Below, piece by piece: positions 8,996 to 64,000 of a DNA stretch of 64,000 nt. The notes under the pieces were generated by a model. The model ran no database searches. It was not told where the DNA came from and worked only from the letters and a program-made list of their open reading frames with translations. The stretch is from NCBI GenBank assembly GCA_000002445.1, contig CH464491.1, positions 480,001 through 544,000 on the forward strand, in the 5' to 3' direction. The DNA comes from Trypanosoma brucei. Its lineage: Eukaryota. Both the position numbers and the translations under genes were made by a program. Each line of letters opens with the position of its first letter. Positions within the stretch are counted from its first letter, which is position 1.

Positions 8996-10984
8996 TCAGC
9001 AAGGGCCCTTCGCATCTCGGGCCAGCTGCTTGTGCAGTATTTCATAATCCATTCTGTCCTTTGCTGAAACAGATGGCTTGACTTTAGACATGCTGACTTC
9101 GAAGTCCTCCATGGTAACGGAGGGCAGCTGCGCATTCGCCACTGCCTCACCACTGGCGTCTCGTTCCATTTGCTCCAGCATCTCCTCGGTGGCGCCACGG
9201 TAGATATTCTTTAGCGCATGCAAGGAGGCCTCCCGCATAAGTGCGGCCAAGTCGGCACCACTAAACCCCTGGAGGCGCTCATCGCGGGCAATACTCGGGA
9301 GATCCACCGACGCGTCAATTGGATAACGGCGTGCATGTGTTTCTAGAATAGAGGCACGCTGCTCCACGGAGGGAAGTGGAACATACAGCATTTTGTCCAG
9401 GCGCCCAGGACGAAGCATAGCCGGATCAATCATATCTGGACGGTTAGTAGCCCCAATGACATACACACTTTCACGTCCCTCCACACCATCCATTTCTGTC
9501 AGCAACTGGTTTACAACGCGCTCACTGCTTGGGTTTGCCCGATCGGAGCCGCGCCGTGGAGCGAGGGCATCCAGCTCATCAAAGAAGAGAACACAAGGAG
9601 CACTTGCACGACCACGAGCAAAAACCATGCGCACACTCCGCTCACTCTCACCAACAAATTTATTCAGCAACTCAGGTCCTTTAATGGATATAAAATTGGC
9701 GCCTGACTGGTTGGCTATAGCCTTTGCCACCAGTGTTTTGCCACAACCTGGCGGGCCGTAGAGCAGCACACCAACTGGATGATCCAACCCAAACCGTCGG
9801 TGAAGCTTTGGCGACCGAATTGGCTGGAGAATGCTGGTGATAAGCTCTTCGCGAACATCCTCAAGAGCACCAATATCATCCCATGTTACGTTGGGGATCG
9901 TCGTGAAGCCCTCCCTCATTGCGCTTGGCTGCACGCGCTTGACGGCCTCCTTCATATTGTCACGTGTCACGACAAAAGACACGAGTTCCTCGGCGTTGGG
10001 ATCGTCCAGTTTATTCTTTTCCTCCAGTTCGTTGTGCTTCTGCCGGATTGCAAGAATGCATGCCTCTTTGACCAGCAGGTGAAGATCTGCACCAACGTAA
10101 CCGGGTGTCATGTTCGCCAGTTCGAAAAAGTCCACGTCCTCTGCCAAATGAAGCTTCTGACAAATTATTTTTAAGATACTGTGCCGTTCGTCGATGGTGG
10201 GGATGCCAAGAGAGATTTCACGATCGAAACGTCCCGCACGGCGCAAGGCGGTATCAAGTGCCTCTGGACGATTCGTAGCCCCCATTACACAAACAACTTT
10301 GTTATGTTGCCGCCACGCCTGGGCAACCTGATCCATGCATGTCAGAAGTTGTCCGACGATGCGGCTTTCCATACCCCGCTGCGCTTGATCGCGACGACCT
10401 GCAATGGTGTCAACCTCATCAATGAATACAATGCTTGGAGCCGCGCTTATGGCATCTAGAAAAAGGTTACGCAGTTTGGCCTCGCTATCACCGCTGATGC
10501 CAGAGACAATTTCGGGAGCGGACACGAAAAAGAGTGGGACTTGCAGGGACCCTGAAATGGCATGCACAAGCTTCGTTTTCCCGCACCCCGGTGGTCCATG
10601 GAGCAGCACACCGCAGGGCGGATCGGCGCCTAAGCGGCTGAATAAATGGGGAGAGCGGATGGGCAATTCAATTAGTTCTTTAATTATTGGAATTTCTCTT
10701 GCAAGCCCGCCCATGTCATCGAGGGTAATACCCGGGATGACGCCGAGCCTTTCGGGTGTGTCTTCCTCACCTCCATCATCGTCTTGTTTGGTTTCCGCAC
10801 GTTTCCGTTTCCTGGAACCCTCCAATCCGTTATCGTCACCACCATTTCTTCGACTACGTTCTGTGAAGTTGCTCTTTTCCCCGCGATCCCTTTCATGGAT
10901 GCCATTTCCCCGTTGAGAAGAGCCATGGAAATACCGGTCGCTTTGCCGTCTCTTCTGCCTGAGCCGCCGCATCTGGTCAGACAT
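8996..10984 (-). CDS. Type II AAA+ ATPase with two complete AAA domains and a short basic N-terminus. It looks like a nuclear VCP-like (NVL/Rix7-like) ribosome-biogenesis ATPase.
   Basis: Two Walker A motifs (GVLLHGPPGCGKT and GVLLYGPPGCGKT), Walker B DE boxes and second-region-of-homology arginines. The N-terminal KR-rich, NLS-like stretch lacks a CDC48-type N domain. Start chosen at the internal ATG (MSDQMRRLRQKRRQ) because the upstream part of the ORF is hydrophobic junk. Confidence 0.65.
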   Translation of the reverse strand: MSDQMRRLRQKRRQSDRYFHGSSQRGNGIHERDRGEKSNFTERSRRNGGDDNGLEGSRKRKRAETKQDDDGGEEDTPERLGVIPGITLDDMGGLAREIPIIKELIELPIRSPHLFSRLGADPPCGVLLHGPPGCGKTKLVHAISGSLQVPLFFVSAPEIVSGISGDSEAKLRNLFLDAISAAPSIVFIDEVDTIAGRRDQAQRGMESRIVGQLLTCMDQVAQAWRQHNKVVCVMGATNRPEALDTALRRAGRFDREISLGIPTIDERHSILKIICQKLHLAEDVDFFELANMTPGYVGADLHLLVKEACILAIRQKHNELEEKNKLDDPNAEELVSFVVTRDNMKEAVKRVQPSAMREGFTTIPNVTWDDIGALEDVREELITSILQPIRSPKLHRRFGLDHPVGVLLYGPPGCGKTLVAKAIANQSGANFISIKGPELLNKFVGESERSVRMVFARGRASAPCVLFFDELDALAPRRGSDRANPSSERVVNQLLTEMDGVEGRESVYVIGATNRPDMIDPAMLRPGRLDKMLYVPLPSVEQRASILETHARRYPIDASVDLPSIARDERLQGFSGADLAALMREASLHALKNIYRGATEEMLEQMERDASGEAVANAQLPSVTMEDFEVSMSKVKPSVSAKDRMDYEILHKQLARDAKGPC

Positions 10985-12110: not shown

Positions 12111-13424
12111 CTACCGCCACTCCACGTCTTTAAGGCTCTTTCCTTCCATCAGCAAGTCCCACAGTGGCGACATTTCACGCAACCTTTCCACAGTGCGGGC
12201 ACACTCCTCAACCGTAACATCCACCTCTCGCTCAGTAGTGAAGCGACCGATACCAAATCGAATGGAGGTGTGTGCATTCTCAGCATCAATACCGAGTGCA
12301 CGCAAAACATAACTTGGCTCTAGAGAGGCGCTTGTGCATGCACTTCCACTCGAGACCGCTACCTTCTTCATGCCCATTAGTAAACTCTCACCTTCCACAC
12401 AGGCAAAGCTAATGTTAAGGTTTCCGTGAAATCGGCGCTCAACATCACCATTGAGTGTGATGTGTGTTAAGCGCTTCTGCAAACCCTCCCATAATCGCTT
12501 ACTAAGTTGGGCGATGCGCTCTGAATCACGCTTCATCTCTACCTTTGCTAGCTCACACGCTGCACCCAATCCCACTGCAAGTGGTGTGGCTATAGTGCCG
12601 CTACGCACACCACGCTCCTGTCCACCACCACTCACTGGTGATCGCACACGGACGCGCGGACGGCGTCGCATGTAGAGGGCACCGCAGCCCTTCGGTCCGT
12701 ATATTTTGTGCGAGGATACTGACATGAGGTCAATGTTATCCCGATCCACATCAATATCCAACTTTCCCACCGCCTGCGCGGCGTCAGTATGAAAGAGGAC
12801 CTTCTTTTTCCTGCATATCTTCCCGATTTCGCCAATGGGTTGAATCACACCAATTTCATTGTTCACATACATGCAAGAAACGAGCGCTGTTGTGGGACGG
12901 ATAGCTTCCTCAAGTTTCTGTAGGTTCACAATCCCATTTTTTTCAACGGGAAGGTACGTTACCTCGAAACCCTCCATTTCCAAGTAGCGGCAGGAGTCCA
13001 AAACACACTTGTGTTCTGTTTGAAGGGTTATGAGGTGGTTTTTCTTTTCTTTGTTGTAGTTGGCTACACCTTTTATGGCAATATTGTTGGACTCCGTTGC
13101 GCCGCTAGTAAAAAAAACACCCTTGGGACTCGCTCGAATTAAATCTGCCACTTGCGTCCGCGCCTTCTCAACGGCCTCCTCAGCAGTCCAACCATAACTG
13201 TGTGTACGGCTGTGTGGGTTGCCATACATTTCAGTCATGTAAGGCAGCATCTTATCGAGTACCCGTGGATCTAACGGAGTTGTTGACTGCAGATCCAAAT
13301 ATAGCGGTCGTGGATCCCTTTTAAAAGGCCTTCCAGCGGAGCCTCCAACCGACGAGACTCCCTGACTGATGGCTGATGCGGAGCCACAAGCCGCGCAAAG
13401 AAGTACGCGAACACCACTAAACAT
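12111..13424 (-). CDS. NFS1: Cysteine desulfurase (NifS/IscS family, mitochondrial Nfs1-type).
   Basis: Strong IscS-like motifs (LDLQSTTPLDPRVLDKM, GNPHSRTHSYGW, HTDAAQAVGK, SSHKIYGPKGCGALY and the PLP lysine region). N-terminal extension consistent with organelle targeting. Confidence 0.9.
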   Translation of the reverse strand: MFSGVRVLLCAACGSASAISQGVSSVGGSAGRPFKRDPRPLYLDLQSTTPLDPRVLDKMLPYMTEMYGNPHSRTHSYGWTAEEAVEKARTQVADLIRASPKGVFFTSGATESNNIAIKGVANYNKEKKNHLITLQTEHKCVLDSCRYLEMEGFEVTYLPVEKNGIVNLQKLEEAIRPTTALVSCMYVNNEIGVIQPIGEIGKICRKKKVLFHTDAAQAVGKLDIDVDRDNIDLMSVSSHKIYGPKGCGALYMRRRPRVRVRSPVSGGGQERGVRSGTIATPLAVGLGAACELAKVEMKRDSERIAQLSKRLWEGLQKRLTHITLNGDVERRFHGNLNISFACVEGESLLMGMKKVAVSSGSACTSASLEPSYVLRALGIDAENAHTSIRFGIGRFTTEREVDVTVEECARTVERLREMSPLWDLLMEGKSLKDVEWR

Positions 13425-13987
13425 TTCTTTTTAGACGATGCTTTTGGTTCTTTATATATTTTTTTTATTTTTATTTTTATTTTTTAAGGATGGAGGAAAA
13501 ATTGTTGCGGGCAAGGTGAGAGGTTGCGAAGACTGTATCAAGTAAAAAAAAACCATAAAGAAATTATGGTCACTAGGGAAGGACACAACAACAGAGACAC
13601 AAATAAAAACCGCAGAGAGGGGGAAGCATACGAGAAAAAAAAATAGAAATCAGAGTGGAACACGAGGGGGCGGCCAGCAAGCTCCCACGCAAAAAAAAAA
13701 AATTATGTTGAATACACCGAACCCGCCTCCATAGCGGCGCACAAAGCGGGGAAGCCATCGCCTTAAAAACTGCGAATAGGGCGGCATGTGAACGATACTT
13801 CGCTAACGACACGAAGAAACAACGGGGAAATAACGCGGGTGAAAACAACAATAACAACGCATTATGTTGCTGGGTCAACTGATCCATCGAACACGCCACC
13901 TTCACGCACGCCCCAACGCACCTTTCCCTCTTTCCTCCTCCTTCTACTCTCCCTAATCTATCATGCAGATATTCCCACTAAACTGCC

Positions 13988-25112: not shown

Positions 25113-26338
25113 GAAGCGATTGTCTCACGACGCAGGCTCAGCAAATTTGGCTATAGCCTACAAACAGAGAAGTGGACACTACACGTAAACAAGAAGAAAA
25201 GGGAAAGAAAAAGAAAAGATTCAAAAAAAAGAGAAGAAGGGGAAGTAATCATAACTAAAAATGCTAACGAGAGAGAAATAAAAACAGTGGAAGAATCCAA
25301 ACATCACACAACCTGTCGTTTATGGTTTGCTAATGTTGCCGCGTGTATGTACTTTCTTGCCCTCGCCACTGAAGAGCTAAACACCATCTTGCAAACGGAA
25401 GTTTTCTCTAAACAAAGATTGATTTATTGGCAAATGTATCATATGCCCTGTTCACATATTTCTTGTATGTCTGCTCGTATTCCTCCTCTTCCTCCGTTCA
25501 GGCTCTATGTGACACTCAAACCCAAAATGCGCGGCAGTATATTTGCGAACATAAGTGTGGGTCGCATGGTTGGATATGAAGCAGCTTGGAGTTCCACATA
25601 CTCAAAGAGAAAAAGATAACTGCATCTGCTTCATATCCAACCATGCGCCTTTTTCTTTCTCTCTCAGTCCTGTCAGACACATACACAGCTCCGTCGGGTG
25701 TGGAGGAGTTTCCCGGGCACACGGCACTGCGTCAAACCCACAGCGGCAACAAAAAGAGAAGGAAAAGCAGACTGTGAGTGAAAAAAAAAAAAGCGGCACG
25801 GCGCATTTGCTCAGCAAAACCAAAGGGAAAGGGGGACCTTTGTTTATCTTATTCACTACGTATGTATACGCATATATATATATATATATATATATAATGA
25901 ATAAAATGAAAGGGAGGAGAATTCAGACAAAATTTAAATGCACCAGCACCAACCCACTGTACGATCAGCAACAACACAAAACACTACCAAACGCTGGTAT
26001 GCCGGAGGGACAAGCGAAGCAAGTATGACCACGATTTTCTCCTGGAAGTTTTCAAGTCCTTGATCGTGATTCTTTTCTTCATTAATTCTAAAGAAATGAT
26101 GACCATAACTATTTTTTTTTCTCCAGTAACACTATTCTTTTTTTTTCTTTTCCTTTGCCCTCCTCCACTAAAGCGAGCACACGTATCATTGTCGTCTATA
26201 TATATATATATATATATATTTACATATATATGTACAGGCGTATATGCAAACACTTCAATAAATCCCCCCTTGGCCAACGCAGGCACCAGTTCGTATGTGT
26301 TTCCAACCCCTTTTTGTTCCTCTACGAGCATATCCTTT

Positions 26339-35695: not shown

Positions 35696-36700
35696 TCAAG
35701 GCCAATCCCTGTAAGGGGTAGGGAGCAATACTCCGCTTTCAGCGAGTTGCACACTTCTGTCCAGGTCAAACTTCTCATCAATGATCGATCCGAGCAATGT
35801 CATATCATCAAGCCTTCCACCTCGGTAGTTGGCACCATTCTCAATTGCTTTATTAGAGTATGGCGTATTGCACTTGACATCACGCGCATTTGCACTAGCC
35901 ACCCGCACAACTTCATCCACCCCAGCGGAAAGGGCCCTCAGGACGTCATCAGGTGGGATTATTTTAGTTGCAACATCATATTGAGATGGCCGATCAAAAT
36001 CTAACGCATACCTCCCACACACAGGACCTACAAATTTCCACACCAGCTCCGCGATATCATGTTTAAAAACGTTATCAAAGATCCCATCGCTGCCCAAAAG
36101 TAGCACGTCCCCGGGCCGCACAACAACACGATATTGCAGCGAATGCACAGGAATGTCGGCACTACCCTGCCCTAGCTGAAAAGGATAATCAAAAGAATGC
36201 ATCTGTTCATCGGACACAAAAACGATCCTACCATCACGAATTATCATCGACGTACAATCACCAATACTGCACACATCCAACATACAATTACTAAATTTCG
36301 CACTAACGGAACAAGACGCATCGGCGGCACAACAAGGGCGCTGCAACGTAGCCACAAGAGCAGTCGAAGTACCGTGAATCTCATCCGACAAGCAGGCGTC
36401 ATAGGCACGCTGCAACAGTTCACACGAGGATAACGGCAACGAACCCAATGCATCATCTTCCACAAAAGAATACATGAACTTCGCCAACGCAGCACTATAA
36501 AGACCGGAATCAACACCAGCATATTCCTTCCACCAGCTCACACCATCAAAAACACACTGTACTTCCGACATTGAAAGAAACGCGTCTTCACCGCCACATG
36601 TCGAACGTTTGGGATGAGAAACAAGGTTCACCGCACGCAGATCAAACGCAAGGCTTCTTCCTCCCACATTGTGTCTCAACAACAACTTTACCACATGCAT
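35696..36700 (-). CDS. PP2C-family (PPM) protein phosphatase, PTC7-like.
   Basis: GGEDAF...DGVSWW motif near the N-terminus and the LLLGSDGIFDNV metal-binding motif near the C-terminus. Confidence 0.65.
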   Translation of the reverse strand: MHVVKLLLRHNVGGRSLAFDLRAVNLVSHPKRSTCGGEDAFLSMSEVQCVFDGVSWWKEYAGVDSGLYSAALAKFMYSFVEDDALGSLPLSSCELLQRAYDACLSDEIHGTSTALVATLQRPCCAADASCSVSAKFSNCMLDVCSIGDCTSMIIRDGRIVFVSDEQMHSFDYPFQLGQGSADIPVHSLQYRVVVRPGDVLLLGSDGIFDNVFKHDIAELVWKFVGPVCGRYALDFDRPSQYDVATKIIPPDDVLRALSAGVDEVVRVASANARDVKCNTPYSNKAIENGANYRGGRLDDMTLLGSIIDEKFDLDRSVQLAESGVLLPTPYRDWP

Positions 36701-36994
36701 ATAAGTCAGAATACTTTATACAAAGGGAAAAATGAAACTAAAAACAGTAACATCAAGAAGAATACACGCTCTCTGCAACGCTACGACACCAACACCGCAT
36801 GGCGGTACATAAGACGCAACCCACAAATGAAAATATCCAATAAAAACGGTAGAAGGGAACTAAACAAAAAAGATAGGAAAAATCTAACTCCGTCCTGGAG
36901 GGACGCACGAGGACGTCCTGAAACGTGTGACAGCTTTCTCCCACACTCAGGTAAACCTCATAGCGTGTCTAATAGCGGGCAGCAGCGGATGCGC

Positions 36995-37225
36995 TCACGC
37001 CTTCTTAGCGGCGGCCTTCTTGCCGGCAACCTTCTTGGGGGCAACCTTTTTGGGAGCGGCCTTCTTGGCTAAAGGTTTCTTGGCAACAGCCTTTTTGGGA
37101 GCAGCCTTCTTAGCGACAGCCTTCTTTGGAGCAGCCTTCTTAGCGACAGCCTTCTTTGGAGCAGCCTTTTTGGGGGCTGCCTTCTTGGCCACAGCTTTCT
37201 TGGGAGCAGCAGATGCCTTCGCCAT
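36995..37225 (-). CDS. H1: Histone H1 (kinetoplastid short form, AKKAAPKK repeats, 76 aa), copy 1.
   Basis: [20 protein letters not shown].... Lysine/alanine/proline repeats and no globular domain. It sits inside a longer track ORF whose N-terminus is 5' UTR. Confidence 0.85.
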   Translation of the reverse strand: MAKASAAPKKAVAKKAAPKKAAPKKAVAKKAAPKKAVAKKAAPKKAVAKKPLAKKAAPKKVAPKKVAGKKAAAKKA

Positions 37226-37651
37226 ACTTCCGAGTGTTGATAAGATTGCGACTTCTTCCACAGGGAGAAAGAGAAAAATGAAAGCAAAATAAAATGAATG
37301 TGAAAGAACATGAGAATACAATGAGTTTGGAGGAAATAAGCGGAAAGGAAAAAGACCTACAGCAATACTATTGGACCACAACCATACACAGGCAGTTAAA
37401 ATAGCCACACATCAGGATGATATGCTCTTTGCAACGCTACGACACCAACACCGCATGGCGGTACATAAGACGCAACCCACAAACGAAACATATCCAATAA
37501 AAACGGTAGAAGGGAACTAAACAAAAAAGATAGGAAAAATCTAACTCCGTCCTGGAGAGACGCACGAGGACGTCCTGAAACGTGTGACAGCTTTCTCCCA
37601 CACTCAGGTAAACCTCATAGCGTGTCTAATAGCGGGCAGCAGCGGATGCGC

Positions 37652-37894
37652 TCACGCCTTCTTAGCGGCGGCCTTCTTGCCGGCAACCTTCTTCGGGGCA
37701 ACTTTTTTGGGAGCGGCCTTCTTGGCGACAGCTTTCTTGGGAGCAGCCTTCTTAGCGACAACCTTCTTAGCTAAAGGTTTCTTGGCAACAGCCTTCTTTG
37801 GAGCAGCCTTTTTGGCCACAGTTTTCTTTGGAGCGGCCTTTTTGGCTGCAACCTTCTTTGGGGTGGCCTTCACAGTAGCGGTTGTGTTGTTCAT
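37652..37894 (-). CDS. H1: Histone H1 variant (80 aa) with a divergent N-terminus [14 protein letters not shown], copy 2.
   Basis: Same AKK/PKK repeat body and C-terminus (GKKAAAKKA) as the other copies, with a unique N-terminus and 5' flank. Confidence 0.8.
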
Positions 37895-39051
37895 TCTTGT
37901 GGGGAGTCGATAAAGAGCTTTCTATGCAAATAAACAGGAGAGGAAAAACTGCGAAAGGGGAGCGAGCTGACCGAGGAACAAAACAATGAATCTGCAGTAA
38001 GTTGCCGCCCAGGCAAGGCGACGAGCTAGTGGCACGGTGTAAAGGAGAATAACAGCATGTTCGGGTGAAGAGTCTGAATTTGGAGCACCTAACCTTGTTA
38101 TAACCACCTACTCACATCTCCTTCCACAGGACCTAGGGGAAACATTAGTGGGGGACACAGAAGAATATATTTATATATGAAACGGAAGGAACCCAAAGTT
38201 TCCTGCGAAACTTCTTGATGGGTTCCCACAGGAGTTAAAGGGTTCTAAGACAACAGACGGTAAGGGAGGCGAGCCCCCCACCCGGGTGTACAATAGACGC
38301 AATATGACATTGAGGAAGTAATTTTCGTGGAAAAACTGGATAGCAACACACTGCTAATGGTGAATACATCCTTTTCTGGACGCAAAAAAATGCAAAACAG
38401 TTGAAGTCAAAGGAATGATCTAACCTTTTCCACCCACGCACACCCACGTATATGCTCATATTTTGCCGCTTCACAAAAAAAAAGGTGTTCCTTTACCCAC
38501 GCACAAGCACCTGATGTACATTGAATTTGTATACATGCATCGACAGCGCTGATGCGGATGGAAGGGTAAAAGCAGGAAAGAGGTGTGAGAGAACGCGAAA
38601 AATAACAACTGCAAACGTGTCAAATAATATGGCGGAAGTTATGGCCCGACTTAGTGGTTGCCACCTAATACTTTGCTTGCTCCCGCTTCATGTCGCCCCC
38701 ACACCTCCATAGCGAAAAGCAACCAAAAAACTTACAATAAGGGCCAGTGGTAAACGAGGTGTCGATATGCCGATGTCTCCAAAACAACAAGGGTATGCAC
38801 AAAGTAATAAGAACAAAACACCCGCAGAAGGGAAGCATGAAAACAGACGCTGAAGGAATCAAGTCAAGAAAAAAATTAAGGAAACGTTCCTCTCCTTTAC
38901 GCGTACACACAATTTTATGTGACCCCCAGAACAATACTGAATAATAACCATTCCATGTTGCGTACATCAAAGGCCACATCAATCCAACCGCGACCGCTAC
39001 GTGAAAACAAAGTGACGCGCAAAGATAATAAGGTCCCATCCCTTCAATCAC

Positions 39052-45744: not shown

Positions 45745-47865
45745 GGTATAGAACGCTCAGTGCCAATATCGGTCTCCGCAGTTGAAAAAAGGGGGTGTGC
45801 TGGCAGCCAAACCCGATAGAGGAATGAGAAACTAACGATTAGGTATATCGGCAGGTTGATAAACAACAAAGTGGGTGCTTACCGTCAGTGTTCTTGGGCC
45901 AAGCTACGAATGCAAAGAGAGGTTACGGCAACAAAGGGGAGAACAAGAGGAACGCCGTTGAAAACAGTGGAAAGGCAGACAAACATACCAGTGTGTAAAC
46001 GAAGACCTGCAATAAAAGAATGATCAGCTGTGCTGCCCCAAGGAAAAGAGTAATATAACTCCGATTCGTGCCCCACAGTATTACAGAGTAATAGCTTGAG
46101 AGTAATTAGTTGCCCCGGTCGGGCCTCCGTCACTGTTTTGGTACAACAAACTGACCACAAAGAAGCATGTGAAGAACACCCAGCAAATCGGTTGCCACAC
46201 CCCGTGGGCATAGCATCAGGCGATGACAGAGGCGAAGCATCGATATTAGTATTACAAACTTGCGGAAACGGCAACTGACACGAGGGTAGTAGCGTTAACT
46301 GCAGACGAACCTGTGTTTCAGCGCGAGCAGAAAAAGATAAAATTGGGTGCTATTTTAGTCCGGAAATGTGCCGGCGGTTACAAAAACGAAGTTAACGGTA
46401 ACATAACAGCGGGGATGCGAGGAACTACACACGCCTAAATCTCCGCGACCACAATCTAAGCGGCAAAGCAGAATTTAAGGAAGCCACGCCACATTCCTTC
46501 GTTTGACAACATTACATGCAGTCGGGTATCATTGTGCCTGCAGCCAATGTTCAGAGTAAAGAAGACCCCATCCCCACAGTGCCACAGCGCACCACCGCTA
46601 AGTGGAGTAATCTAAAAGAACCAAAGGCATCTAGAACTTTTCGTCGAGCCCAAGTTCTGCTGACTCGATCTTTGAAGAAGCAAGGGAGTGTAGTACCTAA
46701 ACTGTCAGCTTGTAAAAATAGGGAAGGACGTGAAACAGGAAAATAGGGGGAAAACGGCAGCTTTATATGTATATTGTCTCCGTTCCAACATTACTGGTGG
46801 GAGGGAAGTTAAAGTGGCGTGTCCATGCGGAGTGAGAGGCAAGGACAGAGACGGGTAAACATAGGAGAACAATTAAATAGAGGACTAGGAGCTGATAAGC
46901 AATTCTCATGTAATATATATAACAAAAGTCCTTGAGTACAAATTGAAAATGAATGAAAATGGGGGAAATGACGGAAAATTGTGATTCGCCTTCAGGAAAA
47001 AGGGGGTCCCGTACATGTCAAAGATTTTTGTGGTCGGTGCTCTTGGCCCCGTTTCTCTTCCCCCACCATCACTCATTCCCCTCCACACCTTTCCCTTTCC
47101 TCATCTTGGTAGGTATACAAATGAAATATTCGCATCTGTTTACTTGGTTCCTTACCTTCCCCTCCGATTCCTCAACACCTAAGATCACATTTTACCTCCG
47201 ACATCCCTTTACAGTCAGAGCAGTGCAATTCATAGGGGCTGTGGAGGAAACGAAAATTCGAACAAACGTTGCTTAATAATACATCACAAACAGACACTGT
47301 AGGGGTAGTTTTTCTCCCTCTTGACCTCCACTTCTTCTTCCACGTGATCATTTTCGTGAGTACTTCCGGAGCCGTTATCGCATTACTTTCCTGCTATTAC
47401 CTTATACAAGCGGCCACACAAAAAAAACACTTTTTGACCCATCAAAACCCTTCCCTCTGAGTCACAACATCCACGGCACGACACCCCCCCCCCATGCGCA
47501 ACGAAGATTGAACCACATCAGGGGGGGGGGGGGTAGATGAACCGACAAAAAGCAGGAAGGAGGGAAAATATAGTGTTGGCTTGGAAGGCAACGTACATCA
47601 AGGGTATTTCCTGCAGTCGGCTACACGAAATTTTTATAACCTTTTTCTACTTCTATCTGCAGCAACCACTCACAAAAAACCCTGCGCGGCTATTAACCAT
47701 TAATAACGCAACGTCACCCCTCTTCATTTTTGTATTTGGTGTCAGCACCTCAAAAAAAAAAGTCACGATGGCATCTACACTTTCTCTCCCTTCCGGACAA
47801 CCAGCGCCCAACCGAGAAAAAAAAGTATACTAAGTGAGATGGATTGCAGATACCCTTTCCCATCC

Positions 47866-51246: not shown

Positions 51247-51259
51247 GGGGGGGGGGGGG
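51247..51259. promoter_or_regulatory. G13 homopolymer (C13 on the coding strand): a polypyrimidine tract about 70 nt upstream of the ATG of the 49689-51176 gene, and a likely trans-splice acceptor signal.
   Basis: Directly visible. Downstream AG dinucleotides precede the ATG. Interpretation relies on established kinetoplastid mRNA-processing signals. Confidence 0.4.
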
Positions 51260-52602
51260 AAGTGCGAGATATGCTCAAAACGAAAAACAGTTTTACAATA
51301 TGTTAATGTTTAAGTTGTTGCTAATGTCAACGATCGAAACGGCATCCACTCCACCGTGAACCCTAGGAGAGGCGGCAACTAACGGATTTTGGACGCCCAA
51401 TGTACCAAAGCTATTGCCGAAAAGATGAACCACACTTCCACATCTGGCAACTCGTCAAGAATGTTTTGGCGCCCTGAAATCCATTTACCGCTCTTCACCA
51501 CAACCGACCAAGCCGCCTCACCCCATTACCCTCAGCAGCTCGCCCGGTAACGCACAGAAAGATTAGTAATAATCGCATGCGGACATCACTCACACCAGTC
51601 AACTACGAGATTCAGAGTACCTGCAAACGCCCACTTCCCCACAGAGATACGTCCCAGATTCATGTGCATACGCGCTAACACACAAAAACCAAGACACATT
51701 AACAGTCAGCGCTTCCTACTTTTCCGAACGCAACAAAAGAACCGAAAATAATTCGAATGGTCCATGGTGCGACAACGAAAGGAAGTAACATCTAAATAAA
51801 AAACAGAAAACAGTGACAACGGACCGATGCCGCAACAAATGCAAAGACACAAAACACGATCCCTTCATAGTGCAATAATTAGTTCATGCAACACAGGACG
51901 CCCAAAAATAAAAACTACGTGCGCTCATTCATCGTATCTGCAAGTGACAATAAGTAGCAAATAAATTTTCCTAAACTACAGATCACAATCCTAAATAATT
52001 ATATCGAAAAGACACAATTAAACACTACTCCAAATTCGACCAGCACGAAGAGTCTATCGCAAATGAACTACCGCGATGATACAATCCACGAGACAGCTAT
52101 CCACCGCAGTGCAGTCACCACTCCACTAAAAACGTTACACAATAACAAAAAACACCGCGCTACTGATACCTTCCCCTGGCACAAGGGAAGTGAAAGATGT
52201 CAGGCATCGAAGCACAACCTCATAACACAACACTTATTCCTATCCCTTGACAAGAAAAAAAAAAGAAAATGGGCATTACACAAAACTAGATCAGCAACAG
52301 AAAGAACATACAGTAATCCCATTGGACCAAAACCATACACAGGCAGTTAATATAGCCACACATCAGGATGATATGCTCTTTGCAACGCTACGACACCAAC
52401 ACCGCATGGCGGTACATAAGACGCAACCCACAAACGAAACATATCCAATAAAAACGGTAGAAGGGAACTAAACAAGTAAGATAGGAAAAATCTAACTCCG
52501 TCCTTGACGGGCGCACAAGTACCTTCTGAAACGTGTGACAGCTTTCTCCCACACTCAGGTAAACCTCATAGCGTGTCTAATAGCGGGCAGCAGCGGATGC
52601 GC

Positions 52603-52833
52603 TCACGCCTTCTTAGCGGCGGCCTTCTTGCCGGCAACCTTCTTCGGGGCAACCTTTTTGGCGACAACCTTCTTGGCTAAAGGTTTCTTGGCAACAGCCT
52701 TTTTGGGAGCAGCCTTCTTAGCGACAGCCTTCTTTGGAGCACCCTTCTTAGCGACAGCCTTCTTTGGAGCAGCCTTTTTGGGGGCTGCCTTCTTGGCCAC
52801 AGCTTTCTTGGGAGCAGCAGATGCCTTCGCCAT
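52603..52833 (-). CDS. H1: Histone H1, copy 3 (76 aa).
   Basis: [15 protein letters not shown].... Almost identical to copy 1, including the flanks. Confidence 0.85.
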   Translation of the reverse strand: MAKASAAPKKAVAKKAAPKKAAPKKAVAKKGAPKKAVAKKAAPKKAVAKKPLAKKVVAKKVAPKKVAGKKAAAKKA

Positions 52834-53258
52834 ACTTCCGAGTGTTGATAAGATTGCGACTTCTTCCACAGGGAGAAAGAGAAAAATGAAAGCAAAATAA
52901 AATGAATGTGAAAGAACATGAGAATACAATGAGTTTGGAGGAAATAAGCGGAAAGGGAAAAGACCTACAGTAATACTATTGGACCACAACCATACACAGG
53001 CAGTTAGTATAGCCACACATCAGGATGATATGCTCTTTGCAACGCTACGACACCAACACCGCATGGCGGTACATAAGACGCAACCCACAAACGAAACATA
53101 TCCAATAAAAAAATGAAAAAGAAATAAAAAAGTAAGATAGGAAAAATCTAACTCCGTCCTGGAGAGACGCACGAGGACGTCCTGAAACGTGTGACAGCTT
53201 TCTCCCACACTCAGGTAAACCTCATAGCGTGTCTAATAGCGGGCAGCAGCGGATGCGC

Positions 53259-53474
53259 TCACGCCTTCTTAGCGGCGGCCTTCTTGCCGGCAACCTTCTT
53301 CGGGGCAACCTTTTTGGGAGCGGCCTTCTTGGCGACAGCTTTCTTGGGAGCAGCCTTCTTAGCGACAGCCTTCTTTGGAGCACCCTTCTTAGCGACAGCC
53401 TTCTTTGGAGCAGCCTTTTTGGGGGCTGCCTTCTTGGCCACAGCTTTCTTGGGAGCAGCAGATGCCTTCGCCAT
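53259..53474 (-). CDS. H1: Histone H1, copy 4 (71 aa; one AKKAA unit shorter).
   Basis: Same N- and C-termini. The repeat number differs by 15 nt. Confidence 0.8.
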   Translation of the reverse strand: MAKASAAPKKAVAKKAAPKKAAPKKAVAKKGAPKKAVAKKAAPKKAVAKKAAPKKVAPKKVAGKKAAAKKA

Positions 53475-53899
53475 ACTTCCGAGTGTTGATAAGATTGCGA
53501 CTTCTTCCACAGGGAGAAAGAGAAAAATGAAAGCAAAATAAAATGAATGTGAAAGAACATGAGAATACAATGAGTTTAGAGTAAATAAGCGGAAAGGAAA
53601 AAGACCTACAGTAATACTATTGGACCAAAACCATACACAGGCAGTTAAAATAGCCACACATCAGGATGATATGCTCTTTGCAACGCTACGACACCAACAC
53701 CGCATGGCGGTACATAAGACGCAACCCACAAATGAAAATATCCAATAAAAACGGTAGAAGGGAACTAAATAAGTAAGATAGGAAAAATCTAACTCCGTCC
53801 TGGAGGGACGCACGAGGACGTCCTGAAACGTGTGACAGCTTTCTCCCACACTCAGGTAAACCTCATAGCGTGTCTAATAGCGGGCAGCAGCGGATGCGC

Positions 53900-54130
53900 T
53901 CACGCCTTCTTAGCGGCGGCCTTCTTGCCGGCAACCTTCTTCGGGGCAACCTTTTTGGGAGCGGCCTTCTTGGCTAAAGGTTTCTTGGCAACAGCCTTTT
54001 TGGGAGCAGCCTTCTTAGCGACAGCCTTCTTTGGAGCAGCCTTCTTAGCGACAGCCTTCTTAGGAGCAGCCTTTTTGGGGGCTGCCTTCTTAGCCACAGC
54101 TTTCTTGGGGGCAGCAGTTGTCTTCGCCAT
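53900..54130 (-). CDS. H1: Histone H1, copy 5 (76 aa; N-terminus MAKTTAAPKK, unique 5' flank).
   Basis: Listed directly in the ORF track. Same repeat body as the others. Confidence 0.85.
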   Translation of the reverse strand: MAKTTAAPKKAVAKKAAPKKAAPKKAVAKKAAPKKAVAKKAAPKKAVAKKPLAKKAAPKKVAPKKVAGKKAAAKKA

Positions 54131-54371
54131 ATTTTATTTTCCTTTCTACTTTCCTATGAAATGTTTTGGTCGAGAAAATAGTTTGAATTAATTTAATTAG
54201 GGTAATGGAGTGTTGTTTATACACATATATCTCCTTCTCTATTTTTTTTCCTTCATTACAGCATTTGGGTTAAGTTTTTTTTGGTAGTGATCTTCCGGGA
54301 CAATCAGGTGAGGTGCCTAAATTTGTGGTCGACGGAAAATTACCAAAAGTGTCCTCTGACTGTTGCTTTGT

Positions 54372-58075: not shown

Positions 58076-59044
58076 TTATTCTACATGAACAATAATTCCG
58101 GTATTCCGTACCCCAGTTGCGGAGGTAATGAAGCTCCTTATAGATCCCTTAACGAGGCCGCGCACGGAGCTCTGATCAGCCGAATCGTGCTTCAGAAGTT
58201 TAACTGCACAAAGTGAAGAGTCCCTGGGTGAAGTTGAATGTGTCCACGCACAAAGACAGAGAACTCTTTTAACACCAACAACACTGCATATCTCGGAAAT
58301 TAGGGTCTGGAAAAACGACAGCTCTCCATAAGGCTGATTTGACAACAGCAAAACTTTACCTGTTTCCTCTAAGAGGGGAAACGCCGATGCAGCTATGAAA
58401 AACGAACACAGAATGCTACAAATTGGGTCAGAAATCCTCGCCCCCGTCAGTGTAATTATGATACTTGATGTCATCACGCTTATGCTCCCTAGAAGATCAG
58501 CCAGTATGTGCAAGTAAACCCCTCTAATATTGTGATCAACCGAGCCCGAGCAACCACCATGAGCATGTGAGTGACCGTGCATACCATGAAAAAAAATGAT
58601 TCCTAGAATATTTACAATTAACCCGATAAGTGAAACTTGTATCAAATATCCAGCTTCAATTTCCGGCGGTTTAATTATCCGTTCAATTGATTCCAGGGTA
58701 ACATACCATGCAATAAATAGTAGAAGAACAGCGTTTACAAAGCCTCCCAAAACTTCATATCTCGCATACCCAAACGGATACCTCCTTTCATCAGATGGAA
58801 AGGATGCAACAACGGCAGCGCACAAGCCGATGGCAATAGAAGCGGAGTCGAGCATCATGTGAAAGGCATCAGAGATAAGCCCCAGCGAATTAACCGCAAT
58901 TCCATATACTAATTCAAGCACCATCACCCCAGTCGTCAGCAACAGAAACATCGCTAAATTCCTCTCCCGTCGGCTGGAAAATAATTGACTGATAGCATTT
59001 GCAACAGAAATATCGTTCCCCTTGTAGGGAAACCCGGGAAGCAT
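58076..59044 (-). CDS. Cation diffusion facilitator (CDF/ZnT-like) metal transporter.
   Basis: SLGLISDAFHMMLD motif in TM2, HGHSHAHG His-rich loop, six TM helices and a C-terminal cytoplasmic domain. Confidence 0.75.
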   Translation of the reverse strand: MLPGFPYKGNDISVANAISQLFSSRRERNLAMFLLLTTGVMVLELVYGIAVNSLGLISDAFHMMLDSASIAIGLCAAVVASFPSDERRYPFGYARYEVLGGFVNAVLLLFIAWYVTLESIERIIKPPEIEAGYLIQVSLIGLIVNILGIIFFHGMHGHSHAHGGCSGSVDHNIRGVYLHILADLLGSISVMTSSIIITLTGARISDPICSILCSFFIAASAFPLLEETGKVLLLSNQPYGELSFFQTLISEICSVVGVKRVLCLCAWTHSTSPRDSSLCAVKLLKHDSADQSSVRGLVKGSIRSFITSATGVRNTGIIVHVE

Positions 59045-62000
59045 TAGTCACTTATTTGAACACACATAACGATAACAATACAACCATAAGCATTCGTAAA
59101 AAAAAAACGAAAAATGTATAATGTAAGTGTGAAAACTGCGAAACAGACACAGCTCAGTGCCAGAAACAATAGCAAATACAAATTTGAGGCGGGGAGAGTA
59201 CCAACCTGTTCCTTGGACATGGCGAAACGGCCTCACATTACGAGACCAACTCCTTCCCTAAAATAAGAAAAGGAGGTAAATTTGTAAAAAGGAGATCGCC
59301 TATTTATTTTACATCTGGCGGACGTTTCAGACTACCCATCAAAACTACAAGCAAAAATCATATTCCTTCCTCAAAAAGGGGGGGATTAACCGCCCACCAA
59401 CCACCCTCCAGAGGTAAGGGGCAAGAGAATACCAAAAATAAAAGACATTAGGTAACTACGTGTAACACCAGATGGGTCAATAGCAATATCCCACAGCATT
59501 CATTCTTACCAGGATAAATGCACATACGCAGTCGCCTCCCTGTGTACAATTAAGGTAATTCAACAAAGAAAAAATGTTGAACCACAAAGACTGTCTTCAT
59601 CCATCAAGGTTTCTTCTGTTACCGCGGAAAAACGGTTTGAACAACTCCATCCCGATCCTCTAATACTTATGCATGCCTAGTAGAGGAGTCCTTCTCCTTC
59701 AAGTCCATTAAGACAAACCATACGTCCACAGAAGACCAGATATTGGAAACTGCAAAGGAGTAATTAGTGAACAGAGAAAACGGTCGTATATTCCTCAATT
59801 GTCAGTATGATCTCCAAAACAAATCACCGAAAACACCAGACAACCGTCAACAATGAGAAAAACAGGGGGAAAAATACACTGCGTAGTGGAGCCTCCCATT
59901 GCATTGACCAGTCCTTCGTTCACATCTATATTTCAAATGGTCCAACGCCAATTATACCTCATACCTAAACTAATGATGTACCCAACAATAAAGATGCGTA
60001 TTAATATTAAAGCTGGTTGTTGTTTTCATACGTTAAGCACGATAAAAGAAATATTAGTAACAATAGAAATAATAGATTCCATCAACAAATCAACTCACCT
60101 CTCACCACCAAAAAAAAAAAGTAGTAAGGAATGTAAGGCGAAGCTAATTGGTCGCAGTAAAAAAAACTCGGAGCAGTATTTTAAAAAAGGGGGGCAAGGA
60201 CAACGGAGGCAGTTGAGCACCAAGTATTCAGAGCTTTATCTCCCACTAACAACGGTAGGCTCCCACTAACACCGACGCCGTTTCCACCTGTTACGCCTAC
60301 GTGCAATATCCCCCTACCTGATGGGTGGCAGCAAATCCTACAGTGAATATGTTGAATTGACCGGGTGTAAAAACACTCAATATAGCAATTCGTAACCCGA
60401 CAACTTGGTTAAGGAGAAAAGTTTCTTTGAGGTACTTTTGGTTCAATGTCAAAACAAAAGCGAGGGGCAAAATAAAGAGTAGATTGCACAGGAATTTAAT
60501 TAACTTTTGCAAATAGAAAATACAATAGCTTCAAGTATTCTGAGTCCCTCTGATTGTCGACCTCTGAATATTTAAGGTAGTGGTCCATGCAACTGCACGA
60601 TACTATTTAGCACTCAATTAAACGATTGCTTTTTTTAAGTTTCTAACAATAGTATTATTTCAAGGATGATCCAGAGACGGAAACTTCTCTTGAAGCGGGT
60701 GTAATAATACTTAAAAGAGAGAAAAGGCACACTTTCACAGTAATAAAGTACGTTACATGTCGAAGGAGCTAGAAAAGAGCGATGAGCAAACATCAAGATA
60801 GGCAGCCCAGTACCCTGGCTCAACAACGTTTAAACAAAAAACAACAAAAACTGGTGATTCACAAAACATAATAACAATATATATGTCTAAATTTTGCGTT
60901 GTTACGGGAAAATAATGGCATCAGAGGTGACGTTGATGAAGTGTCACCCAAACAAGAACGCCGCCAGTGAATGCAGTACCTGCAAGGATTCGCAAGTGGC
61001 TCCAGGCGCCACAAAGCTAGCAGGTGAGAGAGACAGAAAATAAAACATCAATCCCCTGCGACCGCAACGGAGCGGCACAGCACCAAAAGGCCCAACATCG
61101 TCATGGTGGAAGAGACACTAAGCATCAGCACCCTTGTCGGAAGAATGAAACTACATTACCGGGCCAACCATCAGCGGCCCGCTTTAAAGCGCAGCGCACC
61201 AACGAGCTTCTGGGAGAGAGAAACACCGCGGGCTATATGGGTGACGGCACCAAAGTGTCACGACAAGCGGGGGGCGTCGACTTTCCAGATGGGCAGCGAC
61301 AGCATCGACCCGAGCCGGACAACACCATTCGCGAGGTGGTGCGGAACATGGGAAGCCCTCCCCATCTCCACCGAGGAGCCTTGCCCTGGAGGAGACACTC
61401 AGACAAGGTAAGACACACCTCTCCCCAGAAAGCCTTCTCTTAATATATTTAAATACCATGTAGCCGACACGTCCGACCCGAGAGGCAATTCGGGCCGTCC
61501 TCTCACATCCGCAACGGCGCGAGGGCACGTGAGGGGCTAACAGCCCTACACACATTGGGAAGAGTGGCGGCCTCTCTCGTGCTTGCACCGGGTGTTCACC
61601 ATGCCATGACACCAGTCTCCTTTTCCCAACACACCTCAACATGGGAAGAGGAGGGCCGGAGACTCTGAGCGACGCGTACTGACGTCCAGTTCCTAGAATG
61701 GCCAACAACGTACGCAATCCCGTTCGGCGTACCCACATCCAATGTCGTCCACGCCAAATGGTATCAACCAAAGGGTCGGCGAGGTATCGAACTGGGCCCC
61801 ATCCGCGAGCCCAGCAACCACAACACTTTGAAAGTGCTTGATACCACCGCTGGCGCCACAGAAGTGAGGACAGCTCTATTGACATAATGAAGATCATCAT
61901 TCTCACGGGAAAAAATCAGGTTGGCCGCGCGTATCAGCAAAGAGACAATCCGAAAGTTTTCTAAGGAAGGTGGGCAACGCGAATGGCAACACATACCCAG

Positions 62001-64000
62001 TCGTGCGTGGTGCCGGATAGGGTGGAAAAAAAAAAAGAACCCCCCCCCCGGGAGTCGAGAGGTCGCCCCTGACGACAGACGAGAAACATTTCTTATGCCC
62101 GGCTGGCACCACCGAAGGACCCAGGGGGGAAAGAAGGATGGTCGCCCCGGCGGTGCCAGCACAGGGTAGCCACTCGGGACAACAAAGCAAACCTCGGTAA
62201 ACAGAACAATAGGGTATCGAAACTGGTCGTGGCAGAAGAGCGTTTTAAACGCTGCGACAACTGCTCGCAACCCACTAGGCGGCGTCAACCCCCAGCGCTC
62301 GTTACTCTCGGGCTTCCGCGGGCCGAGGGGCGACAAGGACGAGCTGCGGCCGGAAGGTAACAAACAATGCCAACGAAACAGCGCGACGCATGGAAGATGA
62401 AAGTACTGGAGGTCAAGGGTTGCTTACTCGGGGCGTTTTATGGGCCCAACGGAAAGGCTACAATATGGGCGCTGCTTGGTGAATCGGAGATTTGTGGGGG
62501 CAGCACGTACTCGAGTAGCTGAAATATACGAACTGCAGCGAGAAGTAATATGTATTTAACCCGTTCAATTGAACCCTGTAATGCAGAAAAACACTGCGCT
62601 ACTGAAAGCAGAGCTCCATCACAACGTTACCGGTGGAAACAAACTGGATATCGACATTTCACCATTTTCAAAGTTATCGGAACGGATGGTCGCCAGTAGG
62701 TTCTGTGGTACCGTGGACCAACCGTCATGGGCGTAACAAGCCGAGTTAACACGAACGCCTCGAACAGTAGGCAGCATAGCGCAACTTTTTCGGACCTGAG
62801 TTTCTCTAGAAATATCACCAGGCGCCGCTGCTGTATTCACGCACCGTCCCCGAGCACTTGTATCAGTGAATCAAAGCCGCGCCATCCACGCATCGGAAAG
62901 ACTCCCCGTGGACTCATAGTCACTCGATGGATTAGCAATTCTCCAAGCAGAGTGGTGTGAGCCAGAGTGTGCACACTTCCGGGGGCTACCGCTAATACTG
63001 GGACCGCCGCAGGGACCAACGTTGGGCCTCATTCTGTTCAACCCTTGGAACAGTGGTAAATGTCTCGTCCCAGGGTTCAGCACCATGAGGGGACTCTGTT
63101 CCACTACATGACTTACCCTAGTGATGCAGAATACTTCAACGTAGTACCAGAGACCTCTGACACGTTTTTTCGCGTGAGACCAATAATCTTAAGGGGTGCA
63201 GACCTGTGGAACACTGTTTTGGCCGATCCGCTCGGTCGACCATACGGCATGGGGTCCGCCAACCCCGTTGCGGGATATCGCTTCTCTACGTTGTTCCCCT
63301 GACAGGTGCTAGTATTCCGGCAAAAGCATAACTTCAAGTAAGACAGCGGTCTTATTACACAGCATCCTGCAGTGTTGTTTCCTAGTTGCCCCGGTTTTTC
63401 GTATTTCTCACGAAGGTAAAAAGAAAATCTCTAACTTTTTTTTTGTTAATCAAAACGGCAGACGAAGTGAACATGGCACTTAACAGCGTGCAAGGGACCT
63501 GGCGCCACTTCGTTGTCGGTGATCTAAGTCTGGAGGTGATGGAGAAACAATAAGTACGGTGAAGCTGCAGCGTGGGCCACAAAAGGGTGGAAACAGTGAT
63601 GTAACCGTTGGCAGGGCGGTTGTAGGTCCTGCGCTGAATGAGATTTTGTTTGCTTCAAGCGTGGTGAAACATTCAAACCCAAAACACATAGGAGTCACAA
63701 ATGTCAGGTACCAGAAGTCTTCAAGAACTAATAGCGGTTTTAAACCAGGTAAGTAGGGTTATTGCTATTAGGCGTCAAGTAATGTAGGAGATGCCCACTA
63801 CCAGGGCACAAAAGAGAAAGAGCATCCGGAACACATTCCCAGCGCGACGACAACAAACGCAAATAAGCACTAGGGCAAAGAATTGCACCACTGGGTCTGA
63901 AAAGAAGCAGAGGACATGATGATAGGATGCGCACCGGCGACCCGAGCGCCAGAGTGCTTGTAAAAGGAATGTCACGCTTACCGAAAAGGTAAATTGCACA
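59045..64000. other. Gene-free region of about 5 kb upstream of the minus-strand PTU. The distal part (about 61.0-63.3 kb) is GC-rich with C10/A11 homopolymers and overlapping short ORFs on both strands.
   Basis: No ORF with protein-like composition. The translations are R/W/C/P-rich in all frames, as expected for non-coding GC-rich DNA. The position corresponds to the start of the unidirectional gene array. Confidence 0.5.

Follow-up and report, generated by a model that had tools for sequence, protein, structure and literature searches.

Among the closest described systems are the RNA polymerase II (Pol II) start regions of Trypanosoma brucei and the initiation regions of Leishmania major. 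Those of T. brucei have been described as H2A.Z domains of about 10 kb with dispersed initiation, and the 10-mers that are enriched at least six-fold on their coding strand consist of long stretches of G or T (Wedel et al. 2017). At every divergent unit of T. brucei, 5'-triphosphate reads were found to be enriched on both strands (Kolev et al. 2010, PMC2936537), and, as a general statement, all such regions carry start-region marks, namely H2A.Z/H2B.V, H4K10ac, BDF3, and RPB1 or SET27/CRD1 (Kolev et al. 2010; Wedel et al. 2017). For L. major, G-tracts of at least 10 nt were reported as the only motif at initiation regions, yet this motif was not specific (Thomas et al. 2009). Here we compare with these systems the region at positions 59045-64000 of a stretch of 64,000 nt of T. 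brucei TREU927 chromosome 11 (the window: positions 480001-544000 of Tb927_11_01_v4, a window coordinate being the chromosome coordinate minus 480000). The region is the largest gap poor in open reading frames (ORFs) within the window. With a probability that we put at about 0.85, it is part of a divergent strand-switch region of ~8 kb between the zinc transporter gene Tb927.11.1910 and the ubiquitin C-terminal hydrolase (UCH) gene Tb11.46.0014, and this strand-switch region is most likely a dispersed bidirectional Pol II start region. The locus is already known from the list of Kolev et al. (2010) and is an ordinary one.

The offset of 480000 is supported by the tables of Kolev et al. (2010), which put Tb11.42.0001 at 541900..541184 on the minus strand, equal to the ORF at 61900..61184 of the window; it was checked independently by means of the minus-strand AG at 60014-60013, which directly precedes the published 5' end of the transcript Tb11.NT.25 (540012, window 60012). 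The sequences compared included: a T. equiperdum contig (CZPT02001686.1; 99.6% identity to the window), chromosome 11 of T. b. gambiense (FN554974.1; 98.4% identity over the 7 kb compared), and, as outgroup sequence at the junction, T. vivax (2.5 kb upstream of the transporter), Leptomonas and Phytomonas. The contigs of T. grayi and T. vivax end short of the junction, and the loci of T. congolense and T. cruzi fell outside the comparison. The T. b. gambiense locus (L005 in the coordinates below) spans the complete interval, and position 64000 of the window corresponds to L005 7890.

Within L005, UCH is encoded at 3213-4877 (minus strand), the orphan ORF Tb11.42.0001 lies at 10001-10717 (plus strand) and the transporter at 12834-13802 (plus strand); between UCH and the transporter there are short unsupported ORFs only, and more minus-strand genes follow beyond UCH. 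The interval between the two conserved genes measures 7956 bp in T. b. gambiense, and the part that falls within the window amounts to about five-eighths of it. The flanking arrays are on opposite strands and point apart, as is seen both in the gene order of T. b. gambiense, Leptomonas and Phytomonas and in Table S14 of Kolev et al. (2010, PMC2936537), where Tb11.42.0002->Tb11.55.0027 (-) and Tb11.46.0014->Tb11.02.0010 (+) are both listed as 'Divergent' putative Pol II units; the protein sequence given for Tb11.46.0014 in Table S8 of that study equals the UCH N-terminus. The same UCH/transporter junction measures 2.35 kb in Leptomonas pyrrhocoris and 1.5 kb in Phytomonas EM1, and its presence in these two organisms shows the junction to be ancestral to the trypanosomatids. 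The T. brucei junction is 5-6 kb (three to five times) larger.

The strand polarity of the sequence was found to switch inside this interval. The cumulative A-T skew peaks at L005 6558 and the AC-GT skew at L005 6135, i.e. 6.3-6.7 kb upstream of the transporter ATG, with a change of sign in the AT skew at ~6450; in window-equivalent coordinates the switch is located at 65.3-65.7 kb, ~1.3-1.7 kb past the window end. Between L005 7001 and 13000 we counted 64 10-mers made up entirely of G and T on the transporter-sense strand and six on the other, and between L005 5001 and 6000 none and 14, respectively. This was a plain count of all-G/T 10-mers and not one of Wedel's own 10-mer list, and read in that way the bias is at least six-fold. 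Both indicators, the skew and the GT-rich 10-mers, keep minus-strand polarity across all of 59045-64000. We further observed that position 1 of the T. equiperdum contig (L001) corresponds to L005 6117 (window-equivalent ~65.77 kb), no more than 20 nt from the peak of the AC-GT skew; the assembly could have broken here at an insertion or repeat specific to the strain, or the two positions could agree by coincidence.

These results bear on an original prediction made for the region, which held that the gene array stops at 59044 and is followed by the boundary of a polycistronic unit, with a Pol II start or strand-switch region. The boundary was right in kind, as attested by the junction in T. 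b. gambiense, Leptomonas and Phytomonas and by Table S14. The array, on the other hand, does not stop there: Tb11.NT.25 lies on the same strand at 59186-60012, and the skew and the GT-rich 10-mers go on to 64000. A unit that continued through the region on the same strand had been named as something that would speak against a boundary, and this is the case in part, with minus-strand polarity up to the window end and a unit that is still divergent beyond it. What ends at 59044 is the run of ORFs and not the transcription unit, because sequence polarity alone put the switch ~1.5 kb outside the window.

The region had also been called gene-free, and in so far as conserved genes are concerned this holds: no conserved protein gene was found in 59045-64000. 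The check for transfer RNA (tRNA) genes and RNA families that had been proposed with the prediction was carried out, and recovered no tRNA in the window or in L005 (ARAGORN); in the window no Rfam family reached the gathering threshold, and the full T. b. gambiense region gave one chance-level match only at E ≤ 1; no Pfam domain was present in ten stop-free segments or in six X-masked frames (E ≤ 10). The gap looks non-coding by its codon usage (log-likelihood ≤ 6.6 per 80-100 codons, against a mean of ~12 for true gene frames, 10-25 per 1-kb bin) and by its 3-base periodicity (chi-square 2-17, where coding sequence has a median of 34), and it diverges from T. b. gambiense about twice as fast as the neighbouring coding sequence (6.8 versus 3.3 substitutions per 500 nt). 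CpG observed/expected ratios and G-quadruplex motifs were unremarkable, and tandem arrays were absent except for one 35-nt microsatellite. Taken literally, 'gene-free' goes too far, as the gap holds an annotated orphan ORF (Tb11.42.0001) and a processed transcript (Tb11.NT.25). The GC-rich sequence that had been pointed out is indeed there: GC content rises from 39-41% at 59-61 kb to 54-56% at 61-63 kb, the bin 61001-62000 ranks highest of all 64 bins of 1 kb, and nowhere in the window is GC content higher than at 61-63.3 kb. The features of the region and of its border are listed in Table 1.

Table 1. Features of the strand-switch arm and of the gene that borders it (window coordinates).
Feature	Position	Strand	Basis or remark
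Tb927.11.1910-side arm of the divergent strand-switch region / probable Pol II start region	59045..64000	-	~8 kb in full, ~3 kb of it beyond the window
Tb11.42.0002 (= Tb927.11.1910), ZnT5/7-like Golgi zinc transporter (cation-efflux family)	58076..59044	-	heads the conserved genes of the minus-strand unit
T10 polypyrimidine tract (A10 on the plus strand)	59098..59107	-	54-63 nt upstream of the transporter ATG
Tb11.NT.25, novel trans-spliced polyadenylated transcript, 826 nt, ~2 RNAs per cell	59186..60012	-	Kolev et al. 2010, Table S7 (540012->539186)
T11 tract (A11 on the plus strand)	60110..60120	-	~100 nt ahead of the splice acceptor of Tb11.NT.25
GC-rich block of 55% GC, with 300-nt windows reaching 60%; sense strand A-poor	61000..63300		no detectable coding or repeat identity
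Orphan ORF Tb11.42.0001, 238 aa, 'T. brucei spp.-specific protein'	61184..61900	-	GenBank/GeneDB annotation
Second open frame (219 codons), out of frame with the first and overlapping it	61767..62423	-	stop-free frame
G10-TTC-T11 on the sense strand (C10 62040-62049 and A11 62026-62036 on the plus strand)	62026..62049	-	sequence

The processed RNA ahead of the transporter, Tb11.NT.25, has a published poly(A) site at 539186/539189 (Kolev et al. 2010, Table S13, PMC2936537). It has what is expected of a trans-spliced long non-coding RNA (lncRNA): an AG acceptor, upstream pyrimidine tracts (the T11 tract of Table 1, and 60040-60075, which is likewise rich in pyrimidines), a poly(A) site and no sizeable ORF; it diverges faster than coding sequence and lacks 3-base periodicity. 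Judged by its sequence it appears lncRNA-like, because its longest ATG ORF counts only 37 aa. In a scan for RNA structure the sole outlier was the segment at 60020-60169 of the minus strand (z = -5.56 against 40 shuffles; refolding against 200 shuffles gave z = -3.75, none of them being as stable), and the hairpin predicted for it encloses the T11 tract. A structured RNA at this position was not supported by strain comparison, T. b. gambiense having several uncompensated substitutions. TREU927 and T. equiperdum share a 20-nt tandem duplication (CTCCCACTAAC...) just upstream, at 60240-60279, which T. b. gambiense lacks.

The following course of events would fit the locus. The sense (minus) strand is GT-rich and A-poor throughout 59045-64000; sequence of this kind would, according to the published model, favour deposition of H2A.Z/H2B.V and directional initiation over a broad zone, and the same may apply here; minus-strand Pol II initiation would then be spread over a broad zone between 60013 and ~65.5 kb. 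The unspliced 5' leader, probably including the GC-rich block, would be discarded and yield no stable processed RNA, in keeping with Tb11.42.0001 having no published transcript. As published, splicing at the first trans-splice acceptor (60012) yields Tb11.NT.25, a short RNA that looks non-coding. Its poly(A) site at ~59186 lies ~80 nt upstream of the T10 tract (59107-59098), and polyadenylation may be coupled to trans-splicing ahead of the transporter ATG. The T10 tract is presumed to be the splice-acceptor signal for the transporter, to judge from its position: the first AG downstream of it sits 7-8 nt before the transporter ATG, and oligo-dT runs have been reported to cluster just upstream of splice-acceptor sites.

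Several points weigh against the reading as a dispersed start region. The positions of initiation within the region have been inferred only. The GT bias of the sense strand is a matter of degree, as it runs through the whole unit (all-G/T 10-mer ratio of 3.7:1 inside the unit). No sequence test can prove promoter function, because no common motif was found under the promoter peaks (Staneva et al. 2022). And the GC-rich block, with the top GC content of the window, and the two over-long open frames in it are not accounted for by the start-region model. The block looks T. brucei-specific, at least among the sequences compared: the T. b. gambiense region had chance-level similarity only (blastn, tblastx) to the junction sequences of T. 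vivax, Leptomonas and Phytomonas, and no counterpart was found in these outgroups. There is a small chance that this GC-rich, A-poor block is not inert filler and acts as a lineage-specific promoter module, as a CpG-island-like core that would nucleate the H2A.Z domain and set the asymmetric initiation, or that it is the home of a de novo orphan gene.

The two open frames could also belong to a gene of the polycistron, either a real lineage-specific gene Tb11.42.0001 of 238 aa or one of ~410 codons that was frameshifted recently (62423->61187, minus strand); we regard either as quite unlikely. The frames (243 + 219 codons; 61187-62423, minus strand) are longer than those of local dinucleotide shuffles (p = 0.003-0.013 for the longest one; p ≤ 0.001 when the lengths of the top two are added), Tb11.42.0001 is annotated in TREU927, T. 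b. gambiense and T. equiperdum and intact in two more strains, and 130 nt upstream of its ATG there is a T11 tract followed by AG dinucleotides; an open frame that is kept at a strain divergence of ≤ 1.3%, however, carries no evidential weight for a gene. Length is also the only property by which Tb11.42.0001 beats chance. When 1.84 billion representatives were scanned exhaustively with HMMER, it matched nothing outside its own cluster, and the 219-codon frame was without protein match; the periodicity chi-square of the two frames is 8.1 and 4.4, against the coding median of 34, and their codon log-likelihood is at the non-coding level. The predicted Tb11.42.0001 product abounds in Arg, Trp and Cys, as is typical of a junk frame, and the differences between strains comprise ~7 non-synonymous against 2 synonymous ones. 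Moreover, the ORF is listed in Table S2 of Kolev et al. (2010) among those without detectable transcript, and neither Tb11.42.0001 nor its new ID, which from the neighbouring IDs would be Tb927.11.1920, was found mentioned in main texts or in the supplements of the SPARC paper. The annotation is probably spurious, and Tb11.42.0001 not a real protein gene. It had further been suggested in the original prediction that the region might hold degenerate retroelement debris. On such a reading, which we add here in detail, the GC-rich 61-63.3 kb would be a decayed DIRE, ingi, RIME or SIDER and A11 the remnant of a poly(A) tail on the plus strand. What the locus shares with such elements is an A-rich plus strand with an A11 run (62026-62036) in a lineage-specific expansion of a strand-switch region, 5-6 kb larger than in Leptomonas and Phytomonas and without counterpart of the block in these or in T. 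vivax; retroelements are said, in the TriTryp genome papers, to accumulate at strand-switch regions. What it lacks is any trace of the elements themselves: no reverse-transcriptase, endonuclease or other Pfam domain appeared in six frames at E ≤ 10, no protein match (E ≤ 10) was obtained for a plus-strand frame of 382 aa, nor any for nine further stop-free segments on both strands, and there is no direct repeat (a target-site duplication of ~12 bp) around the A run. Eight RIME primer segments for loop-mediated isothermal amplification (LAMP; PMC6324077), used as a test for RIME termini in place of the 79-nt 5' signature, gave 0 matches at ≤ 4 mismatches in the window, the full T. b. gambiense region and the T. 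equiperdum extension. A second copy of the region was not present within the window or in the other loci compared, and A11 can be read equally well as T11 on the sense strand, a kind of polypyrimidine tract of which the window holds 12 others. A very old DIRE could escape the domain, protein, RIME-primer and duplication tests; all in all, we consider retroposon debris very unlikely and leave that suggestion unsupported. A large non-coding interval of unusual composition might, finally, mark some other chromosomal landmark (a centromere flank, a Pol III or small nuclear/small nucleolar RNA cluster, a relic of ribosomal DNA (rDNA), or a site of head-to-tail termination and re-initiation), an idea that is hardly credible at this locus, where the flanking units diverge instead of running head-to-tail, and where the only outlier in RNA structure (60020-60169, minus strand) carries uncompensated strain substitutions. 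The centromere, rDNA and Pol III-cluster readings were rejected because no arrays were found, save for the 35-nt microsatellite, and no RNA genes (no tRNA in the window or the T. b. gambiense region, no Rfam family above the gathering threshold in the former and one chance-level match at E ≤ 1 in the latter).

The homopolymer runs that the original prediction had singled out, C10 at 62040-62049 and an A11 run, are both present. As a distinctive mark of the region they do not hold up, similar runs being spread through the window: there are six G/C runs of at least 10 nt, five of which lie inside the gene array, and the plus strand has 13 A runs of that length versus four T runs. The excess of A runs on the plus strand is that of the usual sense-strand polypyrimidine tracts, and C10 and A11 are ordinary intergenic features. 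The C run at 62040 varies among strains (C10, C12 and C12-T-C6). G runs have reportedly been observed at T. brucei start regions as well (Siegel et al. 2009, as cited by Wedel et al. 2017). A 26-nt inverted repeat, 85% complementary and of the form GGGT..GTGG-A(11-13)-ACA, was noticed at L005 5668-5693 and 9861-9886 (window ~62020-62045), with one copy per strand-switch arm and T-run-CCAC on each sense strand; it is dominated by homopolymers and may be due to chance. Elsewhere in the window, at 47484-47533, an intergenic C10 run inside the array is followed 27 nt on by a G13 run, with which it might form a long G-C hairpin; a further G13 run is found at 51247-51259.

As to the array itself, all ORFs of at least 150 aa between 1 and 59044 are on the minus strand when shadows of longer opposite-strand ORFs are excluded, which agrees with the earlier statement that every supported gene in this part is on that strand. 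The protein encoded at 58076-59044 is identical to TREU927 EAN79163/XP_828275, and the window proteins match EAN79163/EAN79164 exactly. Some further observations were made in the array: i) two arrays of a ~650-bp repeat, with 2-3 copies each that are 87-99% identical, occur at 36693-37970 and 52300-54218, and both correspond to the histone H1 genes Tb11.55.0001/Tb11.39.0008 and Tb11.42.0005-0007 (Povelones et al. 2012); ii) two published novel transcripts, Tb11.NT.23 (46004-46708, minus strand) and Tb11.NT.24 (51326-52245, minus strand), lie in gaps of this polycistron where ORFs are sparse (Kolev et al. 2010, Table S7); and iii) an intergenic, (TA)n-rich pair of inverted repeats is present at 25857-26242, with arms of 40-50 nt that are 76-80% complementary and ~280-300 nt apart.

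Compared with the systems described at the outset, the locus resembles the G-tract regions of L. major (Thomas et al. 2009) in having a sense-strand G10, at 62049-62040, inside what is probably a start region; as in L. major, G tracts are scattered (five more in the unit), so that they are not diagnostic, and the length of this one varies by strain. The gene order around the junction is shared with Leptomonas pyrrhocoris and Phytomonas sp. EM1: LRR, (RNase III-like), hypothetical and UCH on one strand, and cation efflux, TCP1-beta and WD40/STRAP on the other. The interval in between differs, with 2.35 and 1.5 kb, respectively, against 7.96 kb in T. b. gambiense, and has no detectable sequence similarity. 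The likeness is closest to the dispersed start regions of T. brucei (Siegel et al. 2009; Kolev et al. 2010; Wedel et al. 2017): the locus has two diverging polycistrons with a flip of the skew (T>A, G>C) inside, G/T stretches at ~10:1 on each coding strand, a short, low-abundance and non-coding-looking RNA before the first conserved gene, and neither a tRNA nor a defined motif. The long G/T stretch G10-TTC-T11 is itself of the type that was reported to be enriched on the coding strand of start regions (Wedel et al. 2017). Nothing essential differs from these regions. The locus behaves as the current dispersed-promoter model predicts and its value lies mainly in confirmation; its own character is in the asymmetry of its arms, ~1.3-1.7 kb on the UCH side versus 6.3-6.7 kb on the transporter side, and in the 2.3-kb block within the long arm that is more GC-rich than any gene in the window.

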